A DNA stretch of 14,968 bases from the IMG/VR virus record IMGVR_UViG_2529292834_000017, one strand, 5' to 3'. The stretch comes from a virus. Lineage: Duplodnaviria; Heunggongvirae; Uroviricota; Caudoviricetes. Below, in pieces: positions 2,398 to 14,029 of the stretch. The notes under the pieces were generated by a model, which worked only from the letters and a program-made list of their open reading frames with translations, did not search any database and was not told the DNA's origin. Each line of letters starts with the position of its first letter. Position 1 is the stretch's first letter. The position numbers were made by a program, and so were the translations under genes.

Positions 2398-2616
2398 ATG
2401 ACAGTACACAAGCCAGCATCATCAGCTATCCCAACAACTGGATACATCCGTCGCTTTCGCATGCCGGAATTGCTAGGTGTTTCACTGCCTACTATTGATA
2501 GATGGGTTAAAAATGGCACTCTTCCACGCCCAGTGAAGCTAACAGATAACGTGACTGCGTTTGATGCGGTGGAAATTAATAACTGGCTGGCAGAACGCCG
2601 CGGGAAGGTGGCCTGA
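2398..2616 (+). CDS. alpA: AlpA-family phage transcriptional regulator (HTH, excisionase-like)
   Basis: 72-aa ORF with SD AGAGAGG upstream. Sequence ...YIRRFRMPELLGVSLPTIDRWVKNGTLPRPVKLTDNVTAFDAVEINNWL... matches the AlpA/prophage CP4-57 regulator HTH pattern. Position directly downstream of a P4-type int is typical. Confidence 0.88.
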   Translation: MTVHKPASSAIPTTGYIRRFRMPELLGVSLPTIDRWVKNGTLPRPVKLTDNVTAFDAVEINNWLAERRGKVA

Positions 2617-3047
2617 TGGAAAAGAAAAACCGCCCATTACAGGCGGCTAATTCAGATATTCGCGTATCTGATATTACGCCCCTTACAAAATCCCTTCAAG
2701 CACCAAAGCGCACACCGAAAAAGCATCGTGCCCGAGTCTATATGCTGCGTACTGGTATAGAGGGATGGACAGAAAATGACATTCTTCGCTACTGCCGTCT
2801 GTCTTCTGGTCGTAACTATGCAACAGAGTTAGAACGCCAGCTTGGAATCACTCTGGAGCGTATCGACGAAAAGAATCCTGATGGTATCGGAACACACCTT
2901 CGCTACCGTTTCTCCTGCCGTGGTGATGTTCTGAAAGTGATCACTCATGTTAACCATCTTGCGAACATAAATGATCACAACGGACTTTCTCAGCAGGAAA
3001 TTGCCGACATTCTGAAACTCTACCCGGACGCGTTTAACGCCGCCTAA
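2616..3047 (+). CDS. Hypothetical protein with basic N-terminus, coupled to alpA
   Basis: 143-aa ORF. Its ATG overlaps the alpA stop (TGATG) and is preceded by GGAAGGTGG. N-terminal basic stretch KRTPKKHRARVYMLRTG. No recognisable catalytic motif. Confidence 0.7.
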   Translation: MEKKNRPLQAANSDIRVSDITPLTKSLQAPKRTPKKHRARVYMLRTGIEGWTENDILRYCRLSSGRNYATELERQLGITLERIDEKNPDGIGTHLRYRFSCRGDVLKVITHVNHLANINDHNGLSQQEIADILKLYPDAFNAA

Positions 3048-3059
3048 CGGAGACTAAAA

Positions 3060-3893
3060 ATGAACATCGAAAAAAGCAGATTAATTTCTGAGGCCGCCCC
3101 TCATCTGAACGCCTCTCTGGGCACAATTAACGGTAATGAATTTGCCGCAATTGTCCCGGTTATTTCTGGTCATATAGGCGGGCGTGAAACCAATATTGTT
3201 AGCGCAAAAGCGTTACACAAAGCGTTGGGCGTGGGAAAAGACTTCTCTACATGGATCACTGATCGCATCTCTGAATATGACTTCACCATTGGGCACGATT
3301 ACTCAGTCCATAAAACAATTTCCCCAAATTTGGGGAAAAGCCCGAATGACGCGGCTTACAGCAAGATTAAGCAGTCTGGCAGACCCGGCAAAGACTATCT
3401 GTTAAGTGTCGGAATGGCGAAAGAACTGGCAATGATCGAACGCAATGATCAGGGTCGCGCTATCCGCCGTTATTTCATCCAGTGCGAGAAAGAATTACAG
3501 CGTAGCGTGCCTGAAATCGCCGCCCGCTATCGTCGCCAGCTAAAAGCCCGTATCAGTGCCGCAAACAACTTCAAGCCAATGTGCGATGCGCTGAATATGG
3601 CCCGTGCCGAGATGGGGAAAACGACGCAGCAACACCACTACACAAACGAGAGCAATATGATTTCTCGTATCGTTCTTGGTGGGCTAACTGCTAAGCAGTG
3701 GGCGCGGATAAATGGCTATTCTGGCGAACCTCGCGACCATATGAACGCAGAACAGCTTGAGCACCTCTCATATCTCGAAAGCACCAATATCACGTTAATT
3801 GATATGGGCATGGAATATGAGCAGCGCAAAGGAGAACTCACCCGCCTGTCGCAACGCTGGCTCGCCAAGCGTCTGGAGGCGGTCCATGTTTAA
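3060..3893 (+). CDS. Phage antirepressor-like protein (AntA/AntB-type N-terminal domain)
   Basis: 277-aa ORF with SD ACGGAG upstream. N-terminal segment IVSAKALHKALGVGKDFSTWITDRISEYDFTIGHDY fits the AntA-type pattern (A..LH..LGV...FS.WI..RI..Y.F.EG.D) as I remember it. Product call is moderate; coding call is good. Confidence 0.75.
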   Translation: MNIEKSRLISEAAPHLNASLGTINGNEFAAIVPVISGHIGGRETNIVSAKALHKALGVGKDFSTWITDRISEYDFTIGHDYSVHKTISPNLGKSPNDAAYSKIKQSGRPGKDYLLSVGMAKELAMIERNDQGRAIRRYFIQCEKELQRSVPEIAARYRRQLKARISAANNFKPMCDALNMARAEMGKTTQQHHYTNESNMISRIVLGGLTAKQWARINGYSGEPRDHMNAEQLEHLSYLESTNITLIDMGMEYEQRKGELTRLSQRWLAKRLEAVHV

Positions 3894-4068
3894 GCCGACA
3901 GGAACACCACAACCTCAAAAACGCTACAAAGATGCCCACGGAGCACTCGTTACTGTCGAAAGCGTGTCTCACAACCGAGTGACGTTTTATCGCGACGGGT
4001 ATCAATCGCCATGCGTACAACCGCTGGCACGTTTCATGAAGGAGTTCGCGGAGGTTAACAAATGCTAA
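3886..4068 (+). CDS. Small hypothetical protein (60 aa), coupled to upstream gene
   Basis: ATG at 3886 overlaps the stop of the upstream gene (ATGTTTAA), the same overlap style as the other junctions in this operon. Protein [60 protein letters not shown]. The ORF track extends to 3799 but that would overlap the upstream gene by 95 nt. Confidence 0.5.
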   Translation: MFKPTGTPQPQKRYKDAHGALVTVESVSHNRVTFYRDGYQSPCVQPLARFMKEFAEVNKC

Positions 4069-5129
4069 CCGCCCAGAAGAAGATATTTTCACTGGCTGGT
4101 ATGTCGCCAAAATCCAGCAATATGACAGCAAAGTCAGACATTAATACAGCAGATACAAGCAAAGTTTATCATTTGCTGGTGGTAGGAGCGGATGCCTTAA
4201 CTATGTCAGAAATTACGGTCGATGGTGTTAGCGTTGAGAAGGTCAGCGGCTATGCCAGAGAATTTCTGGTCGTAGATGGCTTTCTCTGCTCGTGTAGTGA
4301 CTCCACAAAAACCTTCGTCCACGCGCGTGACGTTAACGAAATGAGCGCGATGTACTGTGCTTCTGGTTCTTCCAATAGTGAGTTTTCGGAGTCCATAAAA
4401 AAGAGCTTGCCGTTATGCGGCAACACGGTTTATGGTTATAAGGCACCTCATAAAACGGGTGCCGGGATTGGCGTCCTAAAAATTCTGAAGGCGACATATG
4501 ACGCGCCAAGCGTCTTTTTTTATGTCGTAGGTCTGACTCACCCATTTTTTGGGCGTTGGTGTATAATCCAGCGCCTTTGTCAATCAATGGTGGCTCAGGC
4601 GGGGGCTTCTTCGGAAGCGCCGGTATCCTTCAGAGCCGGTTACGCCAACCCTGTCTGGGCTACCACCAGCGAAATTGGCGTTTCCGGTGGTAGCGTAACC
4701 TGCTATCTGAAGGAGGCTGCCACATGCTGGCTACTACCCCTACCCAAAAAACGCAATTTATCTGGATTATCGCCGCAGTTCGCCGCGATTGCCCGACAAT
4801 TACCGCCAAAATTCATCATATTGCTGCCGAGTCTGAACGCGATGCTCGCCGTTCTCTGGTGCGCGATCACGTCTGCTTTTTTGCTGGTCGTATCCGCATG
4901 GAGGTGGCACATGATTAAAACCTACGATGTGCATATGGATCCCCTCGAACGCACAAGCCAGATCATCACACTGACAGAAGTGATTAACGACATTCTGGTG
5001 AGCAACTCTCCCTCACGAGACGAAAGACTGAAGGCGTTACTCGCGATATTGGATCTCGCCGTTCGTGACGTTCATTTCCTGCTGGAAGGTGGCGAAATGC
5101 CAGTAAAAACGGGGGCAACCAATGAATAA
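4062..5129 (+). CDS. Questionable 355-aa ORF, probably not one gene
   Basis: The first ~145 codons (4062 to ~4500) look protein-like. The ORF then reads through a hairpin+U7 terminator (4500-4521), a perfect TATAAT (4562-4567), a UUCG-tetraloop hairpin and a 9-bp hairpin, and the SD/ATG of a better ORF in another frame (4724). Its last 72 codons coincide with the separate gene 4911-5129. An annotation pipeline could still call it as one hypothetical protein. Confidence 0.3.
4381..4403 (+). promoter_or_regulatory. Copy 1 of conserved promoter-proximal motif AGTTTT-N2-GAGTCCATAAAAAA (putative early-operon promoter element)
   Basis: GAGTCCATAAAAAA at 4389-4402 is identical to 10237-10250 (14/14), with matching AGTTTT upstream in both. 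Followed by a perfect palindrome TTGCCG-N5-CGGCAA (4406-4422) and, about 100 nt downstream, a hairpin terminator. Confidence 0.35.
4500..4521 (+). terminator. Intrinsic terminator-like hairpin in the immunity leader (timm-like)
   Basis: GACGC-GCCAA-GCGTC stem-loop followed by TTTTTTT. Immediately preceded by TCTGAAGG (4484-4491), a seqA-like target complementary to 4628-4635. Confidence 0.45.
4530..4567 (+). promoter_or_regulatory. Sigma70-type promoter with perfect -10 TATAAT (4562-4567), weak -35
   Basis: TGTATAAT at 4560-4567. No good -35 hexamer at 17 bp, so activity is uncertain. Confidence 0.35.
4568..4700 (+). ncRNA. Candidate P4 CI / P1 C4-type antisense immunity RNA region (boundaries approximate)
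   Basis: Non-coding leader with a GCTTC-TTCG-GAAGC tetraloop hairpin (4605-4618) and a 9-bp perfect stem GCTACCACC/GGTGGTAGC (4659-4667 with 4686-4694). TCCTTCAGA at 4627-4635 is perfectly complementary to TCTGAAGGA at 4706-4714, which overlaps the SD (AGGAGG 4711-4716) of the Icd-like gene, and 8/8 complementary to 4484-4491. Family membership would need a covariance-model search. Confidence 0.4.
4724..4918 (+). CDS. Icd/Kil-like small protein (cell-division-inhibitor family of P1 icd / P4 kil position)
   Basis: 64-aa ORF with SD AAGGAGG (4706-4712). Motif [10 protein letters not shown]...[25 protein letters not shown] resembles Icd-like proteins as I remember them. Its stop overlaps the next ATG (ATGATTAA). 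Sits immediately downstream of the antisense-RNA-like leader, as in P1 immI and P4 immunity regions. Confidence 0.55.
   Translation: MLATTPTQKTQFIWIIAAVRRDCPTITAKIHHIAAESERDARRSLVRDHVCFFAGRIRMEVAHD
4911..5129 (+). CDS. Small hypothetical protein (72 aa), translationally coupled
   Basis: ATG at 4911 preceded by GGAGGTG; overlaps the upstream stop and the downstream start (ATGAATAA at 5122). Protein [32 protein letters not shown]... Confidence 0.5.
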   Translation: MIKTYDVHMDPLERTSQIITLTEVINDILVSNSPSRDERLKALLAILDLAVRDVHFLLEGGEMPVKTGATNE

Positions 5130-5316
5130 CTCAATTAATACCCCTCGCCTTACGTCCGCACTTCAATTAATCGAGCAAGCAGCGGCTGTCCTGGTTGCTG
5201 TCAGTCTTTCGGCTGAAGAAATGGACGCTGCTGATGTCGTGGATGCGATTAAAGCGTGCTCATCTTTGGTTAACGATGCCCGTGCAGAGCTGGTAATTCT
5301 TGGTGGTGAAAAATGA
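5122..5316 (+). CDS. Small acidic hypothetical protein (64 aa)
   Basis: SD GGGGGC upstream. Start overlaps the previous stop and the stop overlaps the next start (ATGA at 5313). Acidic, helical-looking sequence. Confidence 0.65.
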   Translation: MNNSINTPRLTSALQLIEQAAAVLVAVSLSAEEMDAADVVDAIKACSSLVNDARAELVILGGEK

Positions 5317-5576
5317 ATATCAACTTAATTTATCGTCATCCGTGTGAGCTGGAAATTGAATCATTGCTGGGGCGCGAAGAGCCATATCCAGACACATTCA
5401 CTCCCGCAGATTGCGCGACTGAACGGCTTACCAGAGCGCGCACAGGTCTGGTTCATGTGATGAATGAGATTATTCCCTCGGTGGGAGGGGAACAGGCGAC
5501 AGTAATCAATAGCTGGCTACAAAAAGTTACCTCCCTGATAGATATCAGTTTAATCGATGTGGAGAGTGCGAAATGA
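5313..5576 (+). CDS. Small hypothetical protein (87 aa)
   Basis: SD GGTGGTGA upstream; ATGA overlaps at both ends (5313 and 5573). Confidence 0.65.
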   Translation: MNINLIYRHPCELEIESLLGREEPYPDTFTPADCATERLTRARTGLVHVMNEIIPSVGGEQATVINSWLQKVTSLIDISLIDVESAK

Positions 5577-5794
5577 CCAACATCCAGCTCATTGAAGCGC
5601 AATGTCGCATCGAACAGGTTCAGACTGTTTTAGGGTTCTGGCTTGAAGGGGCCAGCCCAAGCAACAGAGACAAGTTAATGATTGGCGCGGTTATGTCACT
5701 GCTCAATGGCGTACCAGAAGCTATTCAGGAAGCGGACGAATTGTTGGGCAAATATGAGTTACAGAATCATTCAGGCGAGGCGAAACATGAATAA
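5573..5794 (+). CDS. Small hypothetical protein (73 aa)
   Basis: SD GAGAGTG upstream; the stop overlaps the next gene start (ATGAATAA at 5787). Confidence 0.65.
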   Translation: MTNIQLIEAQCRIEQVQTVLGFWLEGASPSNRDKLMIGAVMSLLNGVPEAIQEADELLGKYELQNHSGEAKHE

Positions 5795-6389
5795 TTTCTT
5801 AACTTTCCATGCAGAAGCAACGCCTGGCGGCGTAAACATCATGTACCGCAGCAACGATGGCATGACAGAACGCGTTGAGGCCGTCTCATATATTGATGCC
5901 GTAAATCGTCTGGATGCCGGGGATTATGACGATAAACCAGATGAAGGTATGTCAATACATCTCGCTATTGCCGATGGCGGCAACCAGGGATATTTCGATT
6001 ACACATCACAGCATAACGTCATTATGTGGAGATGGCTGATCGCAACAGTATTCATGCTGGAAATGAGAGAGGAAAACGGCACCGTCAGCATTATTGATGA
6101 CAGTGGCAATCATTCCGTGGTTTCTGTTTATTCCAATGGCATCGTCGCCATGCCGCTGTATCCAGTAGCAGAGCGCCTCGCTATGGCAAACAACATTGAG
6201 GGCGCAATGATCGAGAAATATGGTGTTGATGTCGGAACAAAGAATGCCATCATTTTTTACAGCAACATGTTCGATGTCGAACAGGGAACACTCACTTCGT
6301 TTGGGCGAGAAGTGCTTGCCGATCTTCACAACAGCTTTATTGCCGAACTAAACGAAAACGGCATCCCAGAAGCACCAGTGACGCACTAA
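5787..6389 (+). CDS. Hypothetical protein (200 aa from ATG 5787)
   Basis: ATG at 5787 with GAGGCG upstream, coupled to the previous gene. The ORF track start at 5682 would overlap the upstream gene in another frame. No recognisable motif. Confidence 0.65.
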   Translation: MNNFLTFHAEATPGGVNIMYRSNDGMTERVEAVSYIDAVNRLDAGDYDDKPDEGMSIHLAIADGGNQGYFDYTSQHNVIMWRWLIATVFMLEMREENGTVSIIDDSGNHSVVSVYSNGIVAMPLYPVAERLAMANNIEGAMIEKYGVDVGTKNAIIFYSNMFDVEQGTLTSFGREVLADLHNSFIAELNENGIPEAPVTH

Positions 6390-6401
6390 ACGGGGGCCAG
6401 A

Positions 6402-8753
6402 ATGCGAAACATTGATCTTATCCGTCAGGTTATCAGTGCGTCTGAAAACAACTGGCCTCATGTGCTGGACTGCCTGAACATAAATGTCCCTGACTCTCCG
6501 CGCCGTCATGCTCCCTGCCCTGCATGTGGGGGCAAAGATCGATTCCGGTTCGATGACAACGGGCGCGGTAGCTTCATCTGTAATCAGTGCGGCGCTGGTG
6601 ATGGGCTGGATTTAATTAAACGCGTAAATAACTGCGACACAACAGAGGCGGCGCTTCTTGCCGCTGATGTTCTGGGTATTGATTACCGGACAACGGAAAC
6701 ACCAGAAGCCACCAGCCAGAAACGGGAACAACTGGAAACCGAGCGCCAGCGACGCGAACAGGAGCGCCTGAAAAGGGCAGAGAAGGACGAACAACAAAGA
6801 CGGGATACGTTTTCCCGTCAGTTTGATGACATGCGCAGAAAGGCTGTAAACGGCAAATCTGATTATCTGGTTGCGAAAGGGGTAGGTGATTTTACATTCC
6901 CTGTGTTGCCCGATGGATCTCTGTTGCTGGCGCTGGTGGATAAATCCGGCGCAGTCACAGCAGCACAGACTATTACCTCACATGGTGAAAAAAGACTCCT
7001 GACAGGTTCAGCAAAGCGAGGGGCATATCACGCCATAAACGCACAGAAACGACCTCACAGCATCATAATTGCTGAGGGGGTGGCTACCGCCCTGTCGTGC
7101 CATTTAATTCGCCCTGACGCAATGACAGTGGCAGCAATCGACGCTGGCAACCTGTTGCCAGTAGCGGAAGTCATGCGCAGAACATATCCACAGGCACAAA
7201 TCATCATTGCCGCAGATAACGATCACCAGCAAGGAAACTCCGAAAGTGGAGGGATCAACACGGGGAAAGATGCCGCAGAGAGGGCCGCTATTTCCGTAGC
7301 TGGCTGGGTGTCTCTGCCACCGACTGACTATAAAGCCGACTGGAACGACTATCACCAACAACACGGGCTGGCGGCAGCCACAGCAGCATTTAAAGATTCG
7401 ATGTACCAGCCACGGGGGAAAGGGGCGCAGGTGAAAAATCACAAACAGTCAGTCGGGGCGCTGAATGAGATCAGTTCTGGCGAGGTGTTAAGCGATGATG
7501 AAATTGCTGTCCTCGAAGAAATCAACCGGACGTTTACGCATGTCACCATCGGCGGGAAACACAAGGTGGTGTCGCTAAAGCCTTCTCAAACCGGCGGTGT
7601 ATCGCACGTTTTCGAGGATTTATCACAATTTCAGCATTATTTTCATCATAAACCGAGAGTCGCCAGAAAGCTGGCGGGATCGGCGTGGCTGTCATGGAGT
7701 GGGAAGAACTACAAGCCAGGAGGCGTAGGATTTTATCCAGTACCAGACAAATGCCCTGACGATGTTTTTAATCTGTATGAGGGGCTGGCACTGGAACCAA
7801 TTGAAGGAGATTGCACGGTATACCTTAATCACCTGTTGCAGGTTGTCTGTGCCGGTAATGAAGAGGCATACCAATATCTTATCCAGTGGATGGCGCACAT
7901 TATCCAAAAGCCTGATGAAAAACCGTCCGTGGCAATCGTGATGAAATCTGTCCCGGGCACAGGGAAAGGCACAACGGTTAAACCGCTGCTGCAAATACTG
8001 GGGCAGTACGCCGCCCACATTAACGGGGCGGGACATATTTCAGGGCGCTTCAATTCAATACTTGCTAACAAGCTACTGGTATTTGCTGACGAAGTGACGA
8101 TCCACAAGCCGTCTGAAGCTGACAGACTTAAAGCGATTATTAGCGAACCGACGTTTAACCTTGAGCGCAAGGGAATTGATGCTGAACCAATGCCGAATTT
8201 TGCCCGGTTGATATTTGCCAGTAACAGCACACAGGTATTACAGGCAGGGATAAGAGAGCGCCGCTATCTCGTGCTTGAGCCATCTCCTGAAAAAGCACAG
8301 AGCCGGGAGTATTTTGATCGGCTGTACAGTTGGCTTAATGATGGCGGTGCCGCAAAGTTGCTTTGGCATCTTAAAGGGGTGGATCTCTCAGGTTTTGACC
8401 CTCAACGAGCGCCACAGACCGATGCCTTACGTGAAGAAATCTTGCTGGGGCTGTCTGGCGTTGAATTGTTTCTTTATGGCGAGCTAATCAATGAACCTCC
8501 GTTTAATGGCGAAGTCCGTTTGTTTGCAAAGGATATGGTTAGTCGATTTGTAGCGTGGTCGCTTGAGCGTGGGGAAAAGCTTAAAGAACCAGCTGCCAGA
8601 TCACTACTGGGTAAATCACTTGCACAAATGGGGCTGGTGAAGCATGGAAGACCAGACCGAGGGAATGGCGTGTTCTACGAACTACCAGAGGTCGGAGTTC
8701 TACAGGCTGCGTTTGCCCGTCTGATCGGTATGGGGGGGTATGATGTTTTTTAA
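6402..8753 (+). CDS. P4 alpha-type bifunctional DNA primase / SF3-like helicase (zinc ribbon + Toprim + D5/P4-family NTPase)
   Basis: 783-aa ORF with SD GGGGGC. N-terminal zinc ribbon CPACGGKDRFRFDDNGRGSFICNQCGAGDGLDLI (CxxC...CxxC), near-diagnostic of P4-alpha-like primases. Toprim-like IIIAEGVATAL and AADNDHQ (DxD). P-loop-like SVPGTGKGTT, Walker B-like LLVFADEV, sensor-like LIFASNS. Size matches P4 alpha (777 aa). Confidence 0.93.
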   Translation: MRNIDLIRQVISASENNWPHVLDCLNINVPDSPRRHAPCPACGGKDRFRFDDNGRGSFICNQCGAGDGLDLIKRVNNCDTTEAALLAADVLGIDYRTTETPEATSQKREQLETERQRREQERLKRAEKDEQQRRDTFSRQFDDMRRKAVNGKSDYLVAKGVGDFTFPVLPDGSLLLALVDKSGAVTAAQTITSHGEKRLLTGSAKRGAYHAINAQKRPHSIIIAEGVATALSCHLIRPDAMTVAAIDAGNLLPVAEVMRRTYPQAQIIIAADNDHQQGNSESGGINTGKDAAERAAISVAGWVSLPPTDYKADWNDYHQQHGLAAATAAFKDSMYQPRGKGAQVKNHKQSVGALNEISSGEVLSDDEIAVLEEINRTFTHVTIGGKHKVVSLKPSQTGGVSHVFEDLSQFQHYFHHKPRVARKLAGSAWLSWSGKNYKPGGVGFYPVPDKCPDDVFNLYEGLALEPIEGDCTVYLNHLLQVVCAGNEEAYQYLIQWMAHIIQKPDEKPSVAIVMKSVPGTGKGTTVKPLLQILGQYAAHINGAGHISGRFNSILANKLLVFADEVTIHKPSEADRLKAIISEPTFNLERKGIDAEPMPNFARLIFASNSTQVLQAGIRERRYLVLEPSPEKAQSREYFDRLYSWLNDGGAAKLLWHLKGVDLSGFDPQRAPQTDALREEILLGLSGVELFLYGELINEPPFNGEVRLFAKDMVSRFVAWSLERGEKLKEPAARSLLGKSLAQMGLVKHGRPDRGNGVFYELPEVGVLQAAFARLIGMGGYDVF

Positions 8754-10405: not shown

Positions 10406-10579
10406 ATGGCTATTTCAGTAAAGCCAGTATTGATAAGTGAGAAGCAAATGGAAGCGATAAAGAAAATTCAGGAGGAGCAGCGTAAAAAATCAGAGGTAGG
10501 AGTTGCGCCAACGATCCACGAAATTGCTCGGGGATTAATGGATAAGGCGCTGGCTTACACTTTAACTGGACGTGGGTAA
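10406..10579 (+). CDS. Small hypothetical protein (57 aa), first gene of the cargo operon
   Basis: Strong SD AAGGGGGG 6 nt before the ATG at 10406. Protein MAISVKPVLISEKQMEAIKKIQEEQRKKSEVGVAPTIHEIARGLMDKALAYTLTGRG, charged and helical-looking. Possible small regulator or partner protein; inference only. Confidence 0.6.
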   Translation: MAISVKPVLISEKQMEAIKKIQEEQRKKSEVGVAPTIHEIARGLMDKALAYTLTGRG

Positions 10580-10583
10580 ATTT

Positions 10584-11927
10584 ATGGCTACGTGGCAACA
10601 GGGTATTAATTCTGGTGGTTTTCTGGCTGGCATCGGTGCGCAAAATGAGAATGCGCCAAAGGCAAGCGACATTAACGCAACGCTTGGTCTGATCCGCGAA
10701 AACAATGAACTGGCTCGCTCAGGTGCAAATAACGTTGCTCTGACAGGTCTTCGTGGTCTGGCTGGAGTTGCTGACATTTATAAGCAGCAGCAACAGCAGG
10801 AACGTAAAGCGGCATTCCAGAAAGGTTATGCAGATGCTTATGCGTCCGGTGACAGGGAGCAGATGCGTAATCTTATTACAGCATTCCCAGAAGAGTTTGA
10901 GGAAGTCCGTAAAGGGATGAGTTATGTCGATGATGCTCAAAGGGATGATTATGGCAATCTGGCGCTCAAAGCACAGGTAGCCTCATCGCTTGGTCAGGGC
11001 GCATTTGGCAGGTTCATGATGGATAATGAGCAGGAGATGCGTCGTTTAGGTATCCCTCCAGAAACTATTGCTGAAATGCAGGTTAATGACCCGCAGGGCT
11101 TCCAGCATTTCGCAGGTAATCTGGCGCTGTTTTCTCTCGGTCATGAGAAGTATTTCGATATCAAAGATCAAATGGAAGGTCGTCGACTTGAGCAAGGGCG
11201 ACTGGATGAAAGTATGCGTCAGGCTGACATGGAGAACGCGAGAGGATGGGCAAATATCCAGAACGCTCAACTAGACAGGGCTCAGCGAGCACAAATTCAC
11301 TCAGATGAGATGGGATTGAAGCTAATGGAGCTGGGGCAAAAAGGTAAGCCGTCAGCAGACTTAATTAAGGGATTAAATTCTGACATTACCAATTTTGGCA
11401 AAAATTATAACTCTGTCAGAGCGGCGGCAAACTCTCTGCAAGCCCTTAGCAAGGTAAATACTGGCGCTGCCCAACTTGGGATTATCTTCAACTACATGAA
11501 ATCTCTTGACCCGCAGTCAGTCGTTCGTGAAGGCGAACAGGTTCAGGTAATGCGGTCTGATGGCATATGGGGACAAATCAAAGGATACATAGACCAGCTT
11601 AATGCTGGAAACGGCCTGTCGCAGGAGGCAAAGGATAACATTGTTAACGCCGCAAAAATCAACGCCAATGCTATGGGGCAGCAGTTTAACCAGCAGGTTG
11701 ACGAGTATCTCGATACATATGGAGAAACTATTCCTCAGGGGCTAAGAAAAAGCCTTGAAAGAAGGAAAGCGAAGCTATTTGACGATGTTTCCGGGCAGCC
11801 TACATCACAGGCTGGCACTGGACAGGCAAAAGCGGCAACCGGAGGAATATCAGAAGGCGCAACGGCAACCAACCCTAAAACTGGTCAGAAAATCATTTAC
11901 AGGAACGGAAAATGGCAGCAAATGTAA
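10584..11927 (+). CDS. Hypothetical coiled-coil-rich protein (~448 aa; 451 aa if GTG 10572 is used) with Gly-rich N-terminus
   Basis: Long ORF with coding-like composition. N-terminal Gly/Ala/Asn-rich segment (GINSGGFLAGIGAQNENAPK), then a Q/E/R-rich probable coiled coil (QADMENARGWANIQNAQLDRAQRAQIH). No Walker, nuclease or other catalytic motif seen. Start ambiguous between GTG 10572 (overlapping the upstream stop) and ATG 10584. Confidence 0.8.
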   Translation: MATWQQGINSGGFLAGIGAQNENAPKASDINATLGLIRENNELARSGANNVALTGLRGLAGVADIYKQQQQQERKAAFQKGYADAYASGDREQMRNLITAFPEEFEEVRKGMSYVDDAQRDDYGNLALKAQVASSLGQGAFGRFMMDNEQEMRRLGIPPETIAEMQVNDPQGFQHFAGNLALFSLGHEKYFDIKDQMEGRRLEQGRLDESMRQADMENARGWANIQNAQLDRAQRAQIHSDEMGLKLMELGQKGKPSADLIKGLNSDITNFGKNYNSVRAAANSLQALSKVNTGAAQLGIIFNYMKSLDPQSVVREGEQVQVMRSDGIWGQIKGYIDQLNAGNGLSQEAKDNIVNAAKINANAMGQQFNQQVDEYLDTYGETIPQGLRKSLERRKAKLFDDVSGQPTSQAGTGQAKAATGGISEGATATNPKTGQKIIYRNGKWQQM

Positions 11928-14029
11928 TCTTACCGGAAGGTTTTGTGCTCGATGAACAACCTGATAACTCACAGTTTCCTGATAGTTCACAGCTTCCTGA
12001 TGGTTTTGTGCTTGATGCCCAACCAGAACAGCAGCAATCACCTTTGGTTTCACCAGAGGAAAATTCCAGACAGGAAAATGTTGTTAATAATGCTAACGGT
12101 TTCGACCGTTTTATGTATGGCGTTCTCAGTGGATTGATGGATGTTGGTAAAGGTGTTGGCCTGTTTCAGGATATGACACCAGAAGAGCAAGCCGCAATTC
12201 AGTCTCTACAGCAGAAGTTAGCGGCAAAACCATCAACCGCACAAGATGTTGGTGAGTTCGTTGGACAAGCAGCGCCATTTGTTAGTGGTGGTGGGATTAT
12301 TTCTCAGGTTCCCAAAGGGGCGGCAAGACTGGCTGCCGCCGCAGGGCTTGGTGCTGGAGAAGGGGCTATTGTAGCCAATGGAACAAATAGCGATGTTGCT
12401 TCCGGCGCTGCTATTGGCGCTGTGGCTGGCCCTGTAGCCGAACTTGCTGGCCCTGCAATTAATAAAATAGCTGGGAAATTAACCAAGAAGAATGTTTCTT
12501 CGATTCCAGATATTGAGGGGATTACTCCTGCCGAAGAGAAAATTCGTAAGTTATCTGCACAAGGCAACCCAAATCTTGCCTCTTCGCTTGAAGGGCTAGA
12601 TCTAAAACCTCAGAAAGAAATTGTTGAGGCTGCAAATAGGCTTCATGTTGATTCAGTTCTTCCTTCTCATTTATCAGGAAATGAGCAATACCAAGCTGTA
12701 GAGCAAGCCCTAAAGTCACGGACAGGATCAGCGTTAAAAGCTCAAGAAGATAAAGCAATAAGCGAATTAGCCTCTAGTGCTGGCAAGATAATCGATGATG
12801 TTGCTGGTGCGCCAGATGCGTTAGCTATGAGCGAAAAATATATTTATCAGATAAATAGTAGAATGGAAGCACTAAAAAACCGTAGTGATCAGTTATATAA
12901 ACGTGTTGATTCCGCTCTATCACCAAGAACAAAAGTCGAAGCAAATAACACAAGCACTATGCTGGAAAAAATCGCTGATGATTTAGGAGGGTGGGATAAT
13001 CTTGACCCAATAGAAAAGCGAGTTTTTACAGCAATAAACCCCGGCCCAGATAGCATCCTAACGTATGCAAATTTAAACAGGCAAAGGCGTTTAGTTGGTG
13101 ATGCCCTAAATAAAAAGCAGGGGCCATACAAAGATGCTGATAAAGAAGCGCTATCAAGACTATATGGAGCTTTAGCTGAAGACCAAAAATCTGTCTTATC
13201 CAATACTGGATACTTGCGAGATTTCGAAGTCGCACAACGCCTTGTAGCTATGAGAAAAAACTTAGAAAGGCAAATGGTAAATCTTCGCGGGAAAACACTT
13301 AATGGGGATATAGCGTATAAAGTAACGAATTCTCTTCAATCTATGGCAAAAGGTGATGCGAGAGGGTTTCGTGAGATTATGCAAAATACTCCATCAAGAA
13401 CATTGCGAAGGGAGCTAGTAGGAACAGCATTAAGAGATATGCTTTCCTCTGGGAAGCGTGGGGCCGACTTTAATCCATCTGGCTTCGCAGATTGGTGGCA
13501 AAACTTGCAACACAGTGGACAGCTAAAGACTTTGGCTGAACATTTGCCAAAAGAAACAATGAGCGGACTATATGATGTATACAAAGTTGCCAGAGCAATA
13601 AAAAATGCTAAAGCGCATGAAATATCTACTGGTAAGCTGAATGAGTTTGTAAACAGATTTAATCGGGTAACAGCTCCATACGAACTAGCAGCAAAACACA
13701 TTCAAAAAATAGGCACGATGGTAGGCGCTCATTTTGGATCGCTTGGAGCCATTGCTGGGGCTGATATTGGAGCAAGATTGGCGAGTAAAGCTCGATTAGC
13801 TGGTGGAGCAGGGGCGGCTGATGCTGCGGATAAATTAATTGCCTCGCCAGCCTTCCAGAGCGCAGTAAAAAATCTACACGGAAAAGCGCCTGGGCACATT
13901 GTTGATTCACGTATCAGGCGCTCCCCTCAATGGAAGAGTTTTTTTAACTCTCTTCCTGAACAGGAAAAACGGACCATCGCCAGACTGGGCATCATTACTT
14001 GGCTATCTAATGATCCAGATAATGACTAG
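11912..14029 (+). CDS. Hypothetical 705-aa protein with N-terminal tandem repeat and Gly/Ala-rich amphipathic segments
   Basis: ATG at 11912 with AGGAA 6 nt upstream; overlaps the end of the upstream gene by 16 nt. N-terminus has a tandem repeat LPEGFVLDEQP / LPDGFVLDAQP. Gly/Ala-rich stretches at residues ~125-180 (AARLAAAAGLGAGEGAIVANG...AIGAVAGPVAELAGPAINKIAGKL) and near the C-terminus (GSLGAIAGADIGARLASKARLAGGAGAADAADKLIASPA). No enzymatic motif recognised. GC content drops sharply after ~12500. Confidence 0.85.
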   Translation: MAANVILPEGFVLDEQPDNSQFPDSSQLPDGFVLDAQPEQQQSPLVSPEENSRQENVVNNANGFDRFMYGVLSGLMDVGKGVGLFQDMTPEEQAAIQSLQQKLAAKPSTAQDVGEFVGQAAPFVSGGGIISQVPKGAARLAAAAGLGAGEGAIVANGTNSDVASGAAIGAVAGPVAELAGPAINKIAGKLTKKNVSSIPDIEGITPAEEKIRKLSAQGNPNLASSLEGLDLKPQKEIVEAANRLHVDSVLPSHLSGNEQYQAVEQALKSRTGSALKAQEDKAISELASSAGKIIDDVAGAPDALAMSEKYIYQINSRMEALKNRSDQLYKRVDSALSPRTKVEANNTSTMLEKIADDLGGWDNLDPIEKRVFTAINPGPDSILTYANLNRQRRLVGDALNKKQGPYKDADKEALSRLYGALAEDQKSVLSNTGYLRDFEVAQRLVAMRKNLERQMVNLRGKTLNGDIAYKVTNSLQSMAKGDARGFREIMQNTPSRTLRRELVGTALRDMLSSGKRGADFNPSGFADWWQNLQHSGQLKTLAEHLPKETMSGLYDVYKVARAIKNAKAHEISTGKLNEFVNRFNRVTAPYELAAKHIQKIGTMVGAHFGSLGAIAGADIGARLASKARLAGGAGAADAADKLIASPAFQSAVKNLHGKAPGHIVDSRIRRSPQWKSFFNSLPEQEKRTIARLGIITWLSNDPDND

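Follow-up and report, generated by a model that had tools for sequence, protein, structure and literature searches.

An eta-like reading frame held open across an IsrK-C4 RNA immunity switch in an Escherichia coli island

Why would a 355-codon open reading frame (ORF) lie on top of an RNA immunity switch? The frame in question occupies 4062-5129 on the plus strand of IMG/VR virus record IMGVR_UViG_2529292834_000017 (Caudoviricetes), a 14,968-nt stretch that was analysed whole and that we call the window. It starts with ATG and has zero in-frame stops; within it lie a terminator, promoter-like sequence, structured RNA and, from 4724 on, a better-supported gene in another frame. An earlier note made from the letters alone had described the frame in these terms and called it composite, and Rfam, a terminator scan and NCBIfam confirm that it does overlie a terminator, structured RNA and an out-of-frame gene. 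We consider it probable that this eta-like read-through ORF ('ash family protein' in databases; ORF355 below) is the island's counterpart of eta in phage P4, a frame that is truly translated and whose main job is to carry ribosomes across the RNA switch rather than to supply a useful protein. As comparison of related loci indicates, the reading frame is maintained by selection.

The ORF opens in a strong start context (4050-4064, plus strand), in which a Shine-Dalgarno sequence, GGAGG at 4050-4054, lies 7 nt upstream of an ATG at 4062-4064 that overlaps the stop of the preceding DUF4222 gene (ATGCTAA). At the level of the sequence, this stop/start overlap marks DUF4222 as the upstream partner for translational coupling; the same context, GGAGGT-N-ATG(A) on an upstream stop, is kept in 50 related loci whose heads differ. 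In the window the head comprises 115 codons (4062-4406) and is lineage-restricted and weakly constrained. It is followed, on the same strand, by a putative immunity promoter analogous to PLE of P4 (4407-4436; -35 TTGCCG at 4407-4412, 18 nt, -10 TATGGT at 4431-4436), which ends 7 nt upstream of the 5' end of an IsrK/seqA-like RNA with an intrinsic terminator (4443-4520; Rfam RF01394, 60.5 bits, gathering threshold 50). The terminator scan finds a terminator-like hairpin (4500-4514) with a T7 run behind it (4515-4521) at the 3' end of the Rfam isrK match, and codons 116-153 of the ORF overlie the promoter and the IsrK RNA. Further along the plus strand lie a C4/CI-type antisense immunity RNA (4583-4670; Rfam RF01695, 79.9 bits, gathering threshold 45), its candidate target sites (4675-4716) and an Icd/Kil-like gene of 64 aa, icd (4724-4918; NCBIfam NF033153, 71.6 bits, cut-off 25). 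The predicted Icd aligns with the C-terminus of P4 Eta/Kil, and the gene is also annotated in RefSeq. Counted from the long ORF's ATG, icd is in frame +2 ((4724-4062) mod 3 = 2); the long ORF crosses it in the icd +1 frame and ends at 5129.

Two protein families follow this layout closely. Pfam Phage_ASH (PF10554) matches aa 124-232 of the long ORF, that is nt 4431-4757, with 117.2 bits against a cut-off of 26, and PHROG 6928 matches aa 106-232 with 104.6 bits; in the window the PHROG profile is divided, with ORF355 taking up positions 31-148 and Icd positions 138-194. The stop of the long ORF is provided by a 72-aa gene in the same frame (4911-5129, plus strand), which has its own Shine-Dalgarno sequence (GGAGGTGG at 4900-4907) and an ATG overlapping the icd stop (ATGATTAA). 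Its homologues were found in 26 loci; in two of these the icd stop also ends the long ORF and the homologue stands alone, and we take the 72-aa gene for a separate one that is in phase by happenstance. It has no match in Pfam or PHROG, and it forms the best-predicted part of the AlphaFold2 model, being helical with a predicted local distance difference test (pLDDT) score of 63-76.

How widely is the long frame kept open? Two samples bear on this. Fourteen IMG/VR loci were retrieved by the head alone and are therefore unbiased regarding the sequence after it. Read from the head ATG, the ORF has 355 aa in 11 of them, 342 aa in one (39 nt shorter, in frame), and 283 or 288 aa in the last two, where a 2-nt difference or a 10-nt insertion shifts the long ORF into the icd frame. 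Uninterrupted orthologues of about 355 aa, which the earlier note had named as telling against its own reading, have thus largely turned up, and they span four strongly diverged RNA alleles. The pattern expected of a pseudogene, a copy-specific disruption set against intact orthologues with a defined and conserved end, was not seen among the head-selected loci, in which the 355-codon state is the majority; nor is there a conserved alternative end among the proteins sharing the head.

The second sample was selected by Icd/Kil similarity only and holds 155 loci from GTDB genomes and IMG/VR, with 131 distinct upstream sequences. One frame is open for at least 300 nt upstream of the icd ATG in 127 of the 131; relative to icd it is in phase (nested) in 80 and +1, the window's arrangement, in 47, with none in +2, and the remaining frames close within 15-243 nt. 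The distance from the IsrK start to the C4 start is most often 140 nt (83 distinct sequences), and the other spacings are 98, 101, 125, 128, 131, 137, 143, 146, 176 (P4), 185 and 139 nt, so that in 10 of these 11 classes the difference from 140 nt is divisible by 3 (P = 1.3e-4). Within the 139-nt class, three frames (L031, L080 and L157) are broken and one (L074) is still open; the fourth broken frame, L030, has the modal spacing. Conservation is lowest in the spacer that separates the IsrK terminator from C4, where the median pairwise identity is 57%, and every one of 106 distinct spacers is stop-free in the frame of ORF355, as opposed to 50 and 57 of the 106 in the other two frames and 41% of shuffled sequences. 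Finally, the icd +1 frame itself is stop-free in all 46 distinct sequences of the +1 type versus 52 of 84 nested ones (Fisher P = 7e-8).

Could such a frame be open by chance? On that account the head does not code for protein, or a gene upstream was frameshifted or deprived of its stop, and the 355-aa protein with its Ash domain is translated non-coding DNA, open merely because structured, GC-rich RNA is poor in stops. The exact coincidence of the Pfam Ash match with IsrK, the spacer, C4 and the icd leader is what it would lead one to expect, as is the position of the most conserved Ash residues over the C4 a' segment, the C4 3' stem and the a2 target site. It does not, however, explain why diverged spacers should lack stops in one frame only, why length variants should come in multiples of 3, or why loci not chosen on ORF355 should nearly all be open. 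The absence of distant homologues of the head, and of codon-position bias among its substitutions, would likewise suit non-coding DNA, yet a strong Shine-Dalgarno sequence and an ATG overlapping an upstream stop are kept in front of quite different heads. Database ORFs that end anywhere between 152 and 355 aa, and a copy flagged as a pseudogene by the NCBI Prokaryotic Genome Annotation Pipeline (PGAP), also point towards chance, as does a simulation of the 93 substitutions between alleles A and B, in which zero stops had P = 0.074 and which is not compelling alone; P4 eta, however, is reported on experimental grounds to be translated. The frame-specific absence of stops largely refutes this explanation, which we regard as improbable, and with it go a chance open frame and the lost stop or frameshifted pseudogene that the earlier note had suggested. 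A related idea, that Pfam Ash is a spurious translation of conserved RNA and ORF355 an annotation artefact, had arisen from the exact Ash/IsrK-C4 overlap and the variable ORF ends, and was rejected on the frame-conservation tests and the P4 eta precedent.

What of the ORF ends themselves? The Ash segment used as a query brought up more than 300 proteins; the majority have 179-188 aa, belong to many genera of Enterobacterales and carry Ash fused in frame to an Icd-like C-terminus. Proteins sharing the head have 152, 155, 162, 167, 179, 210-218 or 355 aa, their frames diverging after about residue 118-135, and the 155-aa form, which ends ...SVFFMS and a stop, arises by a one-base change in the T-run; the earlier note had proposed looking for a homopolymer error near the A5 or T7 run, and the T7 run is a real frameshift hotspot. 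One might then suppose that a homopolymer error in sequencing or assembly, at the A5 run (4477-4481) or the T7 run (4515-4521), erased the stop of a gene of about 155 codons. Although the 155-aa database forms are just what such an error would separate from the window, at least 11 complete E. coli chromosomes match the DNA from 3800 to 5400 (1601 nt) with 100% identity, all 14 head-selected loci are in the in-frame state, and that state is the rule across genera; the stop of the 155-aa form would, moreover, fall beyond the terminator T-run, an odd place for a real gene to end. We therefore consider an artefact very improbable.

The RNA elements under the frame have a conserved logic of their own. 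C4 has a specificity loop, b' (4626-4634), and a second recognition segment, a' (4636-4651), both delimited by complementarities. Segment b' (TCCTTCAGA) is complementary to 4706-4714 (target site b2), which overlaps the icd Shine-Dalgarno sequence AGGAGG at 4711-4716, and to 4484-4491 in IsrK (b1); within a', 4636-4648 is complementary to 4675-4687 (target site a2) and 4642-4651 to 4465-4474 in IsrK (a1). These are inverted repeats I4, I7 and I8 of the window, I4 and I8 defining a2 and b2, and a1 and b1 are the candidate decoy or target sites of IsrK. The C4 loop, b1 in IsrK and b2 in the icd leader change together, from TCCTTCAGA with TCTGAAGG to TCCATTCGA with TCGAATGG, and such triple compensatory changes are found in alleles A' and B and in L007. 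Across 119 distinct loci we count 42 types of C4 loop, which have on average 8.7 nt of perfect complementarity to their own icd leader and 7.5 nt to their own IsrK, as compared with 4.9 and 4.8 nt for foreign loops. Both isrK and C4 were found in 40 of the 40 relatives scanned with Rfam, in the same order and at kept spacing.

The promoter ahead of IsrK is similarly constrained: CTTGC-17/18-TAT(A/G)GT is kept in 99 distinct sequences with a varying spacer between the boxes, 4407-4442 is invariant in 13 related loci, and the annotated -10 of P4 lies at an equal distance from the P4 isrK match. The earlier note had also placed a promoter inside the ORF, and the one that relatives conserve is TTGCCG 4407-4412/TATGGT 4431-4436; the TATAAT hexamer at 4562-4567 (plus strand), between IsrK and C4, is probably the 'promoter' that its reader saw, and this is not the conserved one. 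We rejected it as the main promoter, as it is kept in only 21 of 105 distinct spacers and is deleted in L007 and L096.

Some further features of the RNA region deserve mention in their own right. The islands of loci L003-L016, which elsewhere are 97-99% identical, carry four alleles of the IsrK 3' half, spacer, C4 and icd leader (4443-4723). These alleles differ at up to 36 of the 88 C4 positions while the flanking icd is nearly identical, so immunity specificity has seemingly been exchanged as a cassette. C4 has an in-frame AUG (4587-4589; M176 of the long ORF) at its extreme 5' end. This codon does not vary in the Ash alignment and belongs to the Rfam C4 consensus (AUGG), and by analogy with the starts of Gifsy-1 orf45 it may serve as an internal start on promoter-proximal transcripts. 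On the minus strand, a hairpin at 4407-4423 (TTGCCGTTATGCGGCAA), followed on that strand by GCTCTTTTTT, overlaps the -35 box of the IsrK promoter. It resembles a terminator for leftward transcription, and may be incidental, since the spacer between the promoter boxes is not conserved in other lineages. The RNA from 4443 to 4730 folds with -125.7 kcal/mol (z = -5.8 against shuffled controls), and when the full read-through transcript is folded to its predicted free-energy minimum, the C4 stem gives way to pairings with sequence further downstream, which is consistent with alternative cis and trans structures.

If the frame is selected, is its product? Here the earlier note had found that the first 145 codons or so look like real protein, which holds only in part: the head is very probably translated, and codons 1-115 are lineage-restricted, weakly constrained as protein and of low-confidence structure. 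No head homologue below 77% identity was found in an index of 5.8 billion proteins or by an exhaustive HMMER search of 1.84 billion representatives, and the head has no match in Pfam or PHROG. No other coding stretch diverges as much as the head among near-identical islands (4-9%, as compared with about 1.4% for AntA), and the head's 14-30 substitutions per 345 nt are spread evenly over codon positions. The ratio of nonsynonymous to synonymous substitution rates (dN/dS) is 0.4-0.6 for the head; the five alternative frames give 0.5-1 or more, whereas AntA and DUF4222 have 0.0-0.4. AlphaFold2, run on a 35-sequence alignment, assigns the head a pLDDT of 30-49 and the Ash part one of 31-53; values above 60 are confined to the tail gene and a single hydrophobic helix. 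Other elements have heads of different length and sequence, yet these keep the strong Shine-Dalgarno sequence and ATG on an upstream stop codon. Frame rather than protein appears to be conserved across genera, and the product is probably unimportant, given the lack of distant head homologues, a head dN/dS barely below that of the off-frames and the low pLDDT. In the +1 type, the Kil residues are dropped entirely from the long product.

A functional protein acting in trans would be the obvious competitor: a multi-part regulator of the 'Bro-network' or Eta type, or an antirepressor-associated factor, whose head and perhaps Ash segment would be directed for instance at a helper phage, and in whose gene the RNA genes are merely embedded. 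Such a protein would need a conserved frame, as observed, and the classing of Phage_ASH among the Bro-network domains (Mageeney, 2023; PMC10111431) would place it in suitable company; its Ash residues, however, are dictated by the RNA elements, and in Gifsy-1 orf45 there is a precedent for conserved nucleotides with variable amino acids (PMC4825925). The fast evolution and elevated divergence of the head would befit a protein in an arms race, and its dN/dS is somewhat below 1; the search of 1.84 billion representatives, on the other hand, found no head homologue below about 77% identity, and AlphaFold2 has no confident fold for head or Ash part. The motifs K..SLAGLM and EF.ESIKKGL recur across different heads, and in L107 a DUF4222 domain is fused to the long ORF, which may also hint at a working protein. 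The C-termini of the long products are unrelated in the two frame types (Kil in one, the icd off-frame and various downstream genes in the other), which is hard to reconcile with a conserved protein function. A trans-acting protein appears unlikely.

The ribosome-carrying role that we favour would make translation itself the active principle and the product dispensable. A stricter form of it, held only tentatively and short of what we would call probable, is that the long frame is a purely cis-acting 'ribosome conduit', in which start, phase and the absence of stops are all that is selected, over a promoter, a terminator, two RNA genes and, for the +1 class, an entire second protein gene, and the amino acids are free or dictated by the RNA.

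How would this work? In the quiescent state, by analogy with P4, P1 and Gifsy-1, only the internal promoter at 4407-4436 would fire. Its transcript would start at about 4443, past the ORF start codon, and since the ATG at 4062 would then be absent from the RNA, the long frame could not be translated in this state. Most transcripts would end at the IsrK terminator, and read-through RNA would be processed to C4, whose a' and b' would pair with a2 and b2 over the icd ribosome-binding site and with a1 and b1 in IsrK. This pairing would block icd translation and leave the RNA untranslated; transcription would consequently end before the replication genes (primase, 6402-8753), and the primase operon would be off. 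In the induced state, transcription would enter from upstream along the alpA-antA-DUF4222 chain, and ribosomes would pass from DUF4222 into ATG 4062 by translational coupling, proceed through the terminator, C4 and the target sites, and then cross icd in the +1 frame into the next gene. Translation of ORF355 would open up the terminator and the duplexes of C4 with its targets and would deny Rho access to the RNA. Overlapping stops and starts do form a chain from 2398 to 8753, with 3893/3886, 4068/4062, 5129/5122 and 5316/5313 among the junctions, in which ORF355 is the only bridge over the 655 nt between DUF4222 and icd (4068-4724). We propose that an operon translated gap-free from 2398 to 8753 in this way would override immunity-specific termination.

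Several observations weigh against this account. While the anatomy, the co-variation of RNA and targets and the selection for an open, in-phase frame are seen directly in the sequences compared, translation of ORF355 is itself something that we infer, and the causal role given to it draws on P4, through a secondary source, and on Gifsy-1 orf45 (PMC4825925). A head of 115 codons is far longer than ribosome loading alone requires (P4 eta starts about 75 nt before the isrK match); its in-frame dN/dS of 0.4-0.6 lies slightly below the off-frame values; and heads that otherwise differ have short N- and C-terminal motifs in common, all of which makes some function of the product possible. Nor is openness absolute, as frame-shifted versions exist (155-aa forms ending just after the T-run, others of 152-218 aa) and 4 of the 131 Icd-selected frames are broken, although some of these may be assembly errors. 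The sampled loci are also phylogenetically related, so that the P-values given above overstate independence; despite these optimistic values, the signal is confined to one frame, and independent lines of evidence of several kinds point to it.

The head carries some curiosities besides. The shared motifs are an N-terminal K..SLAG(L)M and a C-terminal EF.ESIKKGL that stands just before the IsrK promoter; the otherwise differing heads that have them are those of L109, L111, L110, L114, L135, L153 and the window, several with repeated (F)ETSTRE-like stretches. Such repeated or shared motifs may be repeats at the DNA level (binding sites) or a feature of the peptide. A 14-nt stretch at 4172-4185 (TTTGCTGGTGGTAG), with further imperfect copies at 4263 and 4681, is 93% complementary to the C4 3' end at 4660-4673; this is probably chance, since the stretch is variable among close alleles. 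A minus-strand gene beneath the head was rejected (3-6 stops per minus frame, dN/dS no lower), as were iterons or an origin within it, where we found just short repeats in two or three copies. Two loci show how parts of this region can be joined differently. In L107 (814-1692) the DUF4222 domain, head, Ash and Icd are fused in frame as a single ORF of 292 aa, so the upstream partner and the read-through ORF can merge. In L013/L166 (IMGVR_UViG_2529292726_000025) the 10-nt insertion lies inside icd, giving a 288-aa product that ends with the Icd C-terminus and truncating icd as read from its own ATG; protein P0046 (146 aa, 'Icd-like') has the same junction.

The window is an integrative island adjoining yicC, and similar DNA is present in 1,220 of 5,426 genomes. 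Its gene set includes an integrase, an AlpA-type helix-turn-helix protein, an AntA/AntB antirepressor (3060-3893), the DUF4222 gene (3886-4068, plus strand; Pfam DUF4222, 87 bits; stop TAA at 4066-4068; also annotated in RefSeq), several small ORFs after the long one, and a replication gene for a primase with Zn-ribbon, Toprim and DUF5906 domains at 6402-8753. Further on lies a gene for a protein resembling the P22 injectosome DNA/protein translocase (10572-11927; Pfam Inj_translocase, 247 bits), followed by a 705-aa ORF without a Pfam match (11912-14029). These last two are uncommon cargo for a satellite and fit the 'DNA transfer' genes of EcCIMP1.

Public annotation of this DNA is divided against itself. 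In RefSeq NZ_LR883050 identical DNA is labelled as a 355-aa 'ash family protein', WP_001419054.1, just as the earlier note had foreseen of automated annotation; in NZ_CP013190 it is a pseudogene ('ash family protein, missing C-terminus') beside a distinct Icd-like protein, and 4911-5129 has no annotation. An eta-type layout accounts for the conflict between protein and pseudogene, and it recovers elements that were overlooked, namely the two RNAs (IsrK and C4), the short Icd gene and the gene for 72 aa at 4911-5129. As thousands of enterobacterial genomes carry the labels 'ash family protein', 'transcriptional repressor' or 'Icd-like', on products of 180-355 aa, over this region, correction of annotation is the clearest practical use of the result. 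The name 'Ash' of PF10554 stems from a putative 137-aa 'ash'/'cI' ORF of P4 (X02534, X51522, NC_001609), which reportedly goes back to Lin in 1984. The 'transcriptional repressor' label on P4p10 (NC_001609) and on PHROGs 6928 and 1743 derives from the old cI assignment to this 137-aa ORF, and it has probably spread to Eta and Icd-like proteins in error, because the P4 immunity factor is the CI RNA (PMC3632133).

Should the conduit idea hold, PF10554, PHROG 6928 and the labels 'ash family protein' and 'transcriptional repressor' would denote a family conserved for the sake of RNA and translation and not of a protein function, and the +1 class would be an undescribed solution, in which a translated frame that fully overlaps icd couples transcription and translation through the termination zone. 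The results extend the P4 design of translating through the immunity switch to islands resembling phage-inducible chromosomal islands (PICIs), and offer a compact natural system for translation-dependent override of termination controlled by an antisense RNA, in which a single stop-codon insertion suffices as a test, together with a catalogue of at least 42 immunity specificities. The eta/kil-CI-seqA design of P4 and the IsrK-C4 homologues in P4-like prophages and PICIs are already known (PMC3632133, PMC10111431). New, as far as the literature consulted shows, are the quantitative evidence for frame selection across genera, the common +1 class, whose frame overlaps icd completely and merges with the next gene, and the long, fast-evolving head in PICI-like islands.

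How does the locus compare with known systems? By its genes, the island resembles the EcCIMP1-type PICIs of E. coli, which likewise have an integrase, AlpA, an antirepressor, an 'Ash family protein', a primase and P22-like DNA-transfer proteins; the paper that describes them treats the Ash family protein as an ordinary conserved coding sequence, unlike the account given here, and makes no mention of an RNA immunity module (PMC11773190).

By its RNA logic, the locus recalls immI of P1 and P7 (c4, a1/b1, a2/b2, icd, ant; Rfam RF01695 and RF03163), where C4 is processed from the operon leader, two recognition segments pair with an upstream pair of sites and with a pair over the icd ribosome-binding site, specificity variants give heteroimmunity, and an Icd-like gene comes first in the repressed operon. 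The antirepressor is downstream of icd in P1, whereas AntA of the window is upstream, and we know of no long ORF described as spanning c4 in P1.

The isrK-orf45-anrP region of Gifsy-1 in Salmonella shares with the window an IsrK small RNA made from a promoter of its own and ending in a leaky terminator (Hershko-Shalev et al., 2016; PMC4825925). Read-through RNA is processed there to the C4-like RNA STnc1160, as may also happen in the window, and a translated ORF, orf45, overlaps the C4-like RNA, with conserved nucleotides and non-conserved amino acids, its translation driving the next gene by coupling (PMC4825925). Unlike the long ORF of the window, orf45 is only 45 codons long, begins after IsrK and has an antirepressor gene as its coupled partner, and IsrK activates in trans (PMC4825925). 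A long, upstream-coupled frame spanning the promoter is not known to have been described there.

The closest parallel is P4. In its sequence (L018), we find an open frame of 199 codons at 1380-1979 whose ATGA start overlaps the vis stop and whose last part is the Kil sequence; isrK (1455-1532) and C4 (1640-1727) lie inside it, and PHROG 6928 covers P4 Eta end to end. The nested genes eta (ORF199) and kil, the PLE promoter, seqA and the CI RNA were reportedly described by Forti and colleagues in 1999 and by Sabbattini and colleagues in 1995. IsrK has been equated with seqA, and C4 with CI (Barquist, 2013; PMC3632133). According to the summary of Forti (1999) in PMC10111431, the constitutive promoter, seqA and CI of P4 are internal to eta, Kil is a truncated in-frame form, and eta is coupled with the alpA homologue that precedes it; ribosomes translate eta only on transcripts from the late promoter further upstream, and by doing so they prevent immunity termination. 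P4 and the window thus agree in an ORF that starts on the stop of an upstream gene and contains the constitutive immunity promoter, IsrK/seqA with its terminator hairpin and C4/CI; in the Kil/Icd gene that follows, whose ribosome-binding site is the CI/C4 target; in the alpha-type primase and replication genes downstream; and in their Pfam Ash and PHROG 6928 matches. They differ in the upstream partner (DUF4222 after the AntA antirepressor in the window, vis/alpA in P4), in head length (about 115 codons against about 25) and in the kind of element, a PICI-like island as opposed to a P4-type satellite. They also differ in phase: the long frame of P4 is in phase with kil and ends with it, whereas that of the window runs +1 to icd, covers its 64 codons completely and closes with the stop of the gene that follows.

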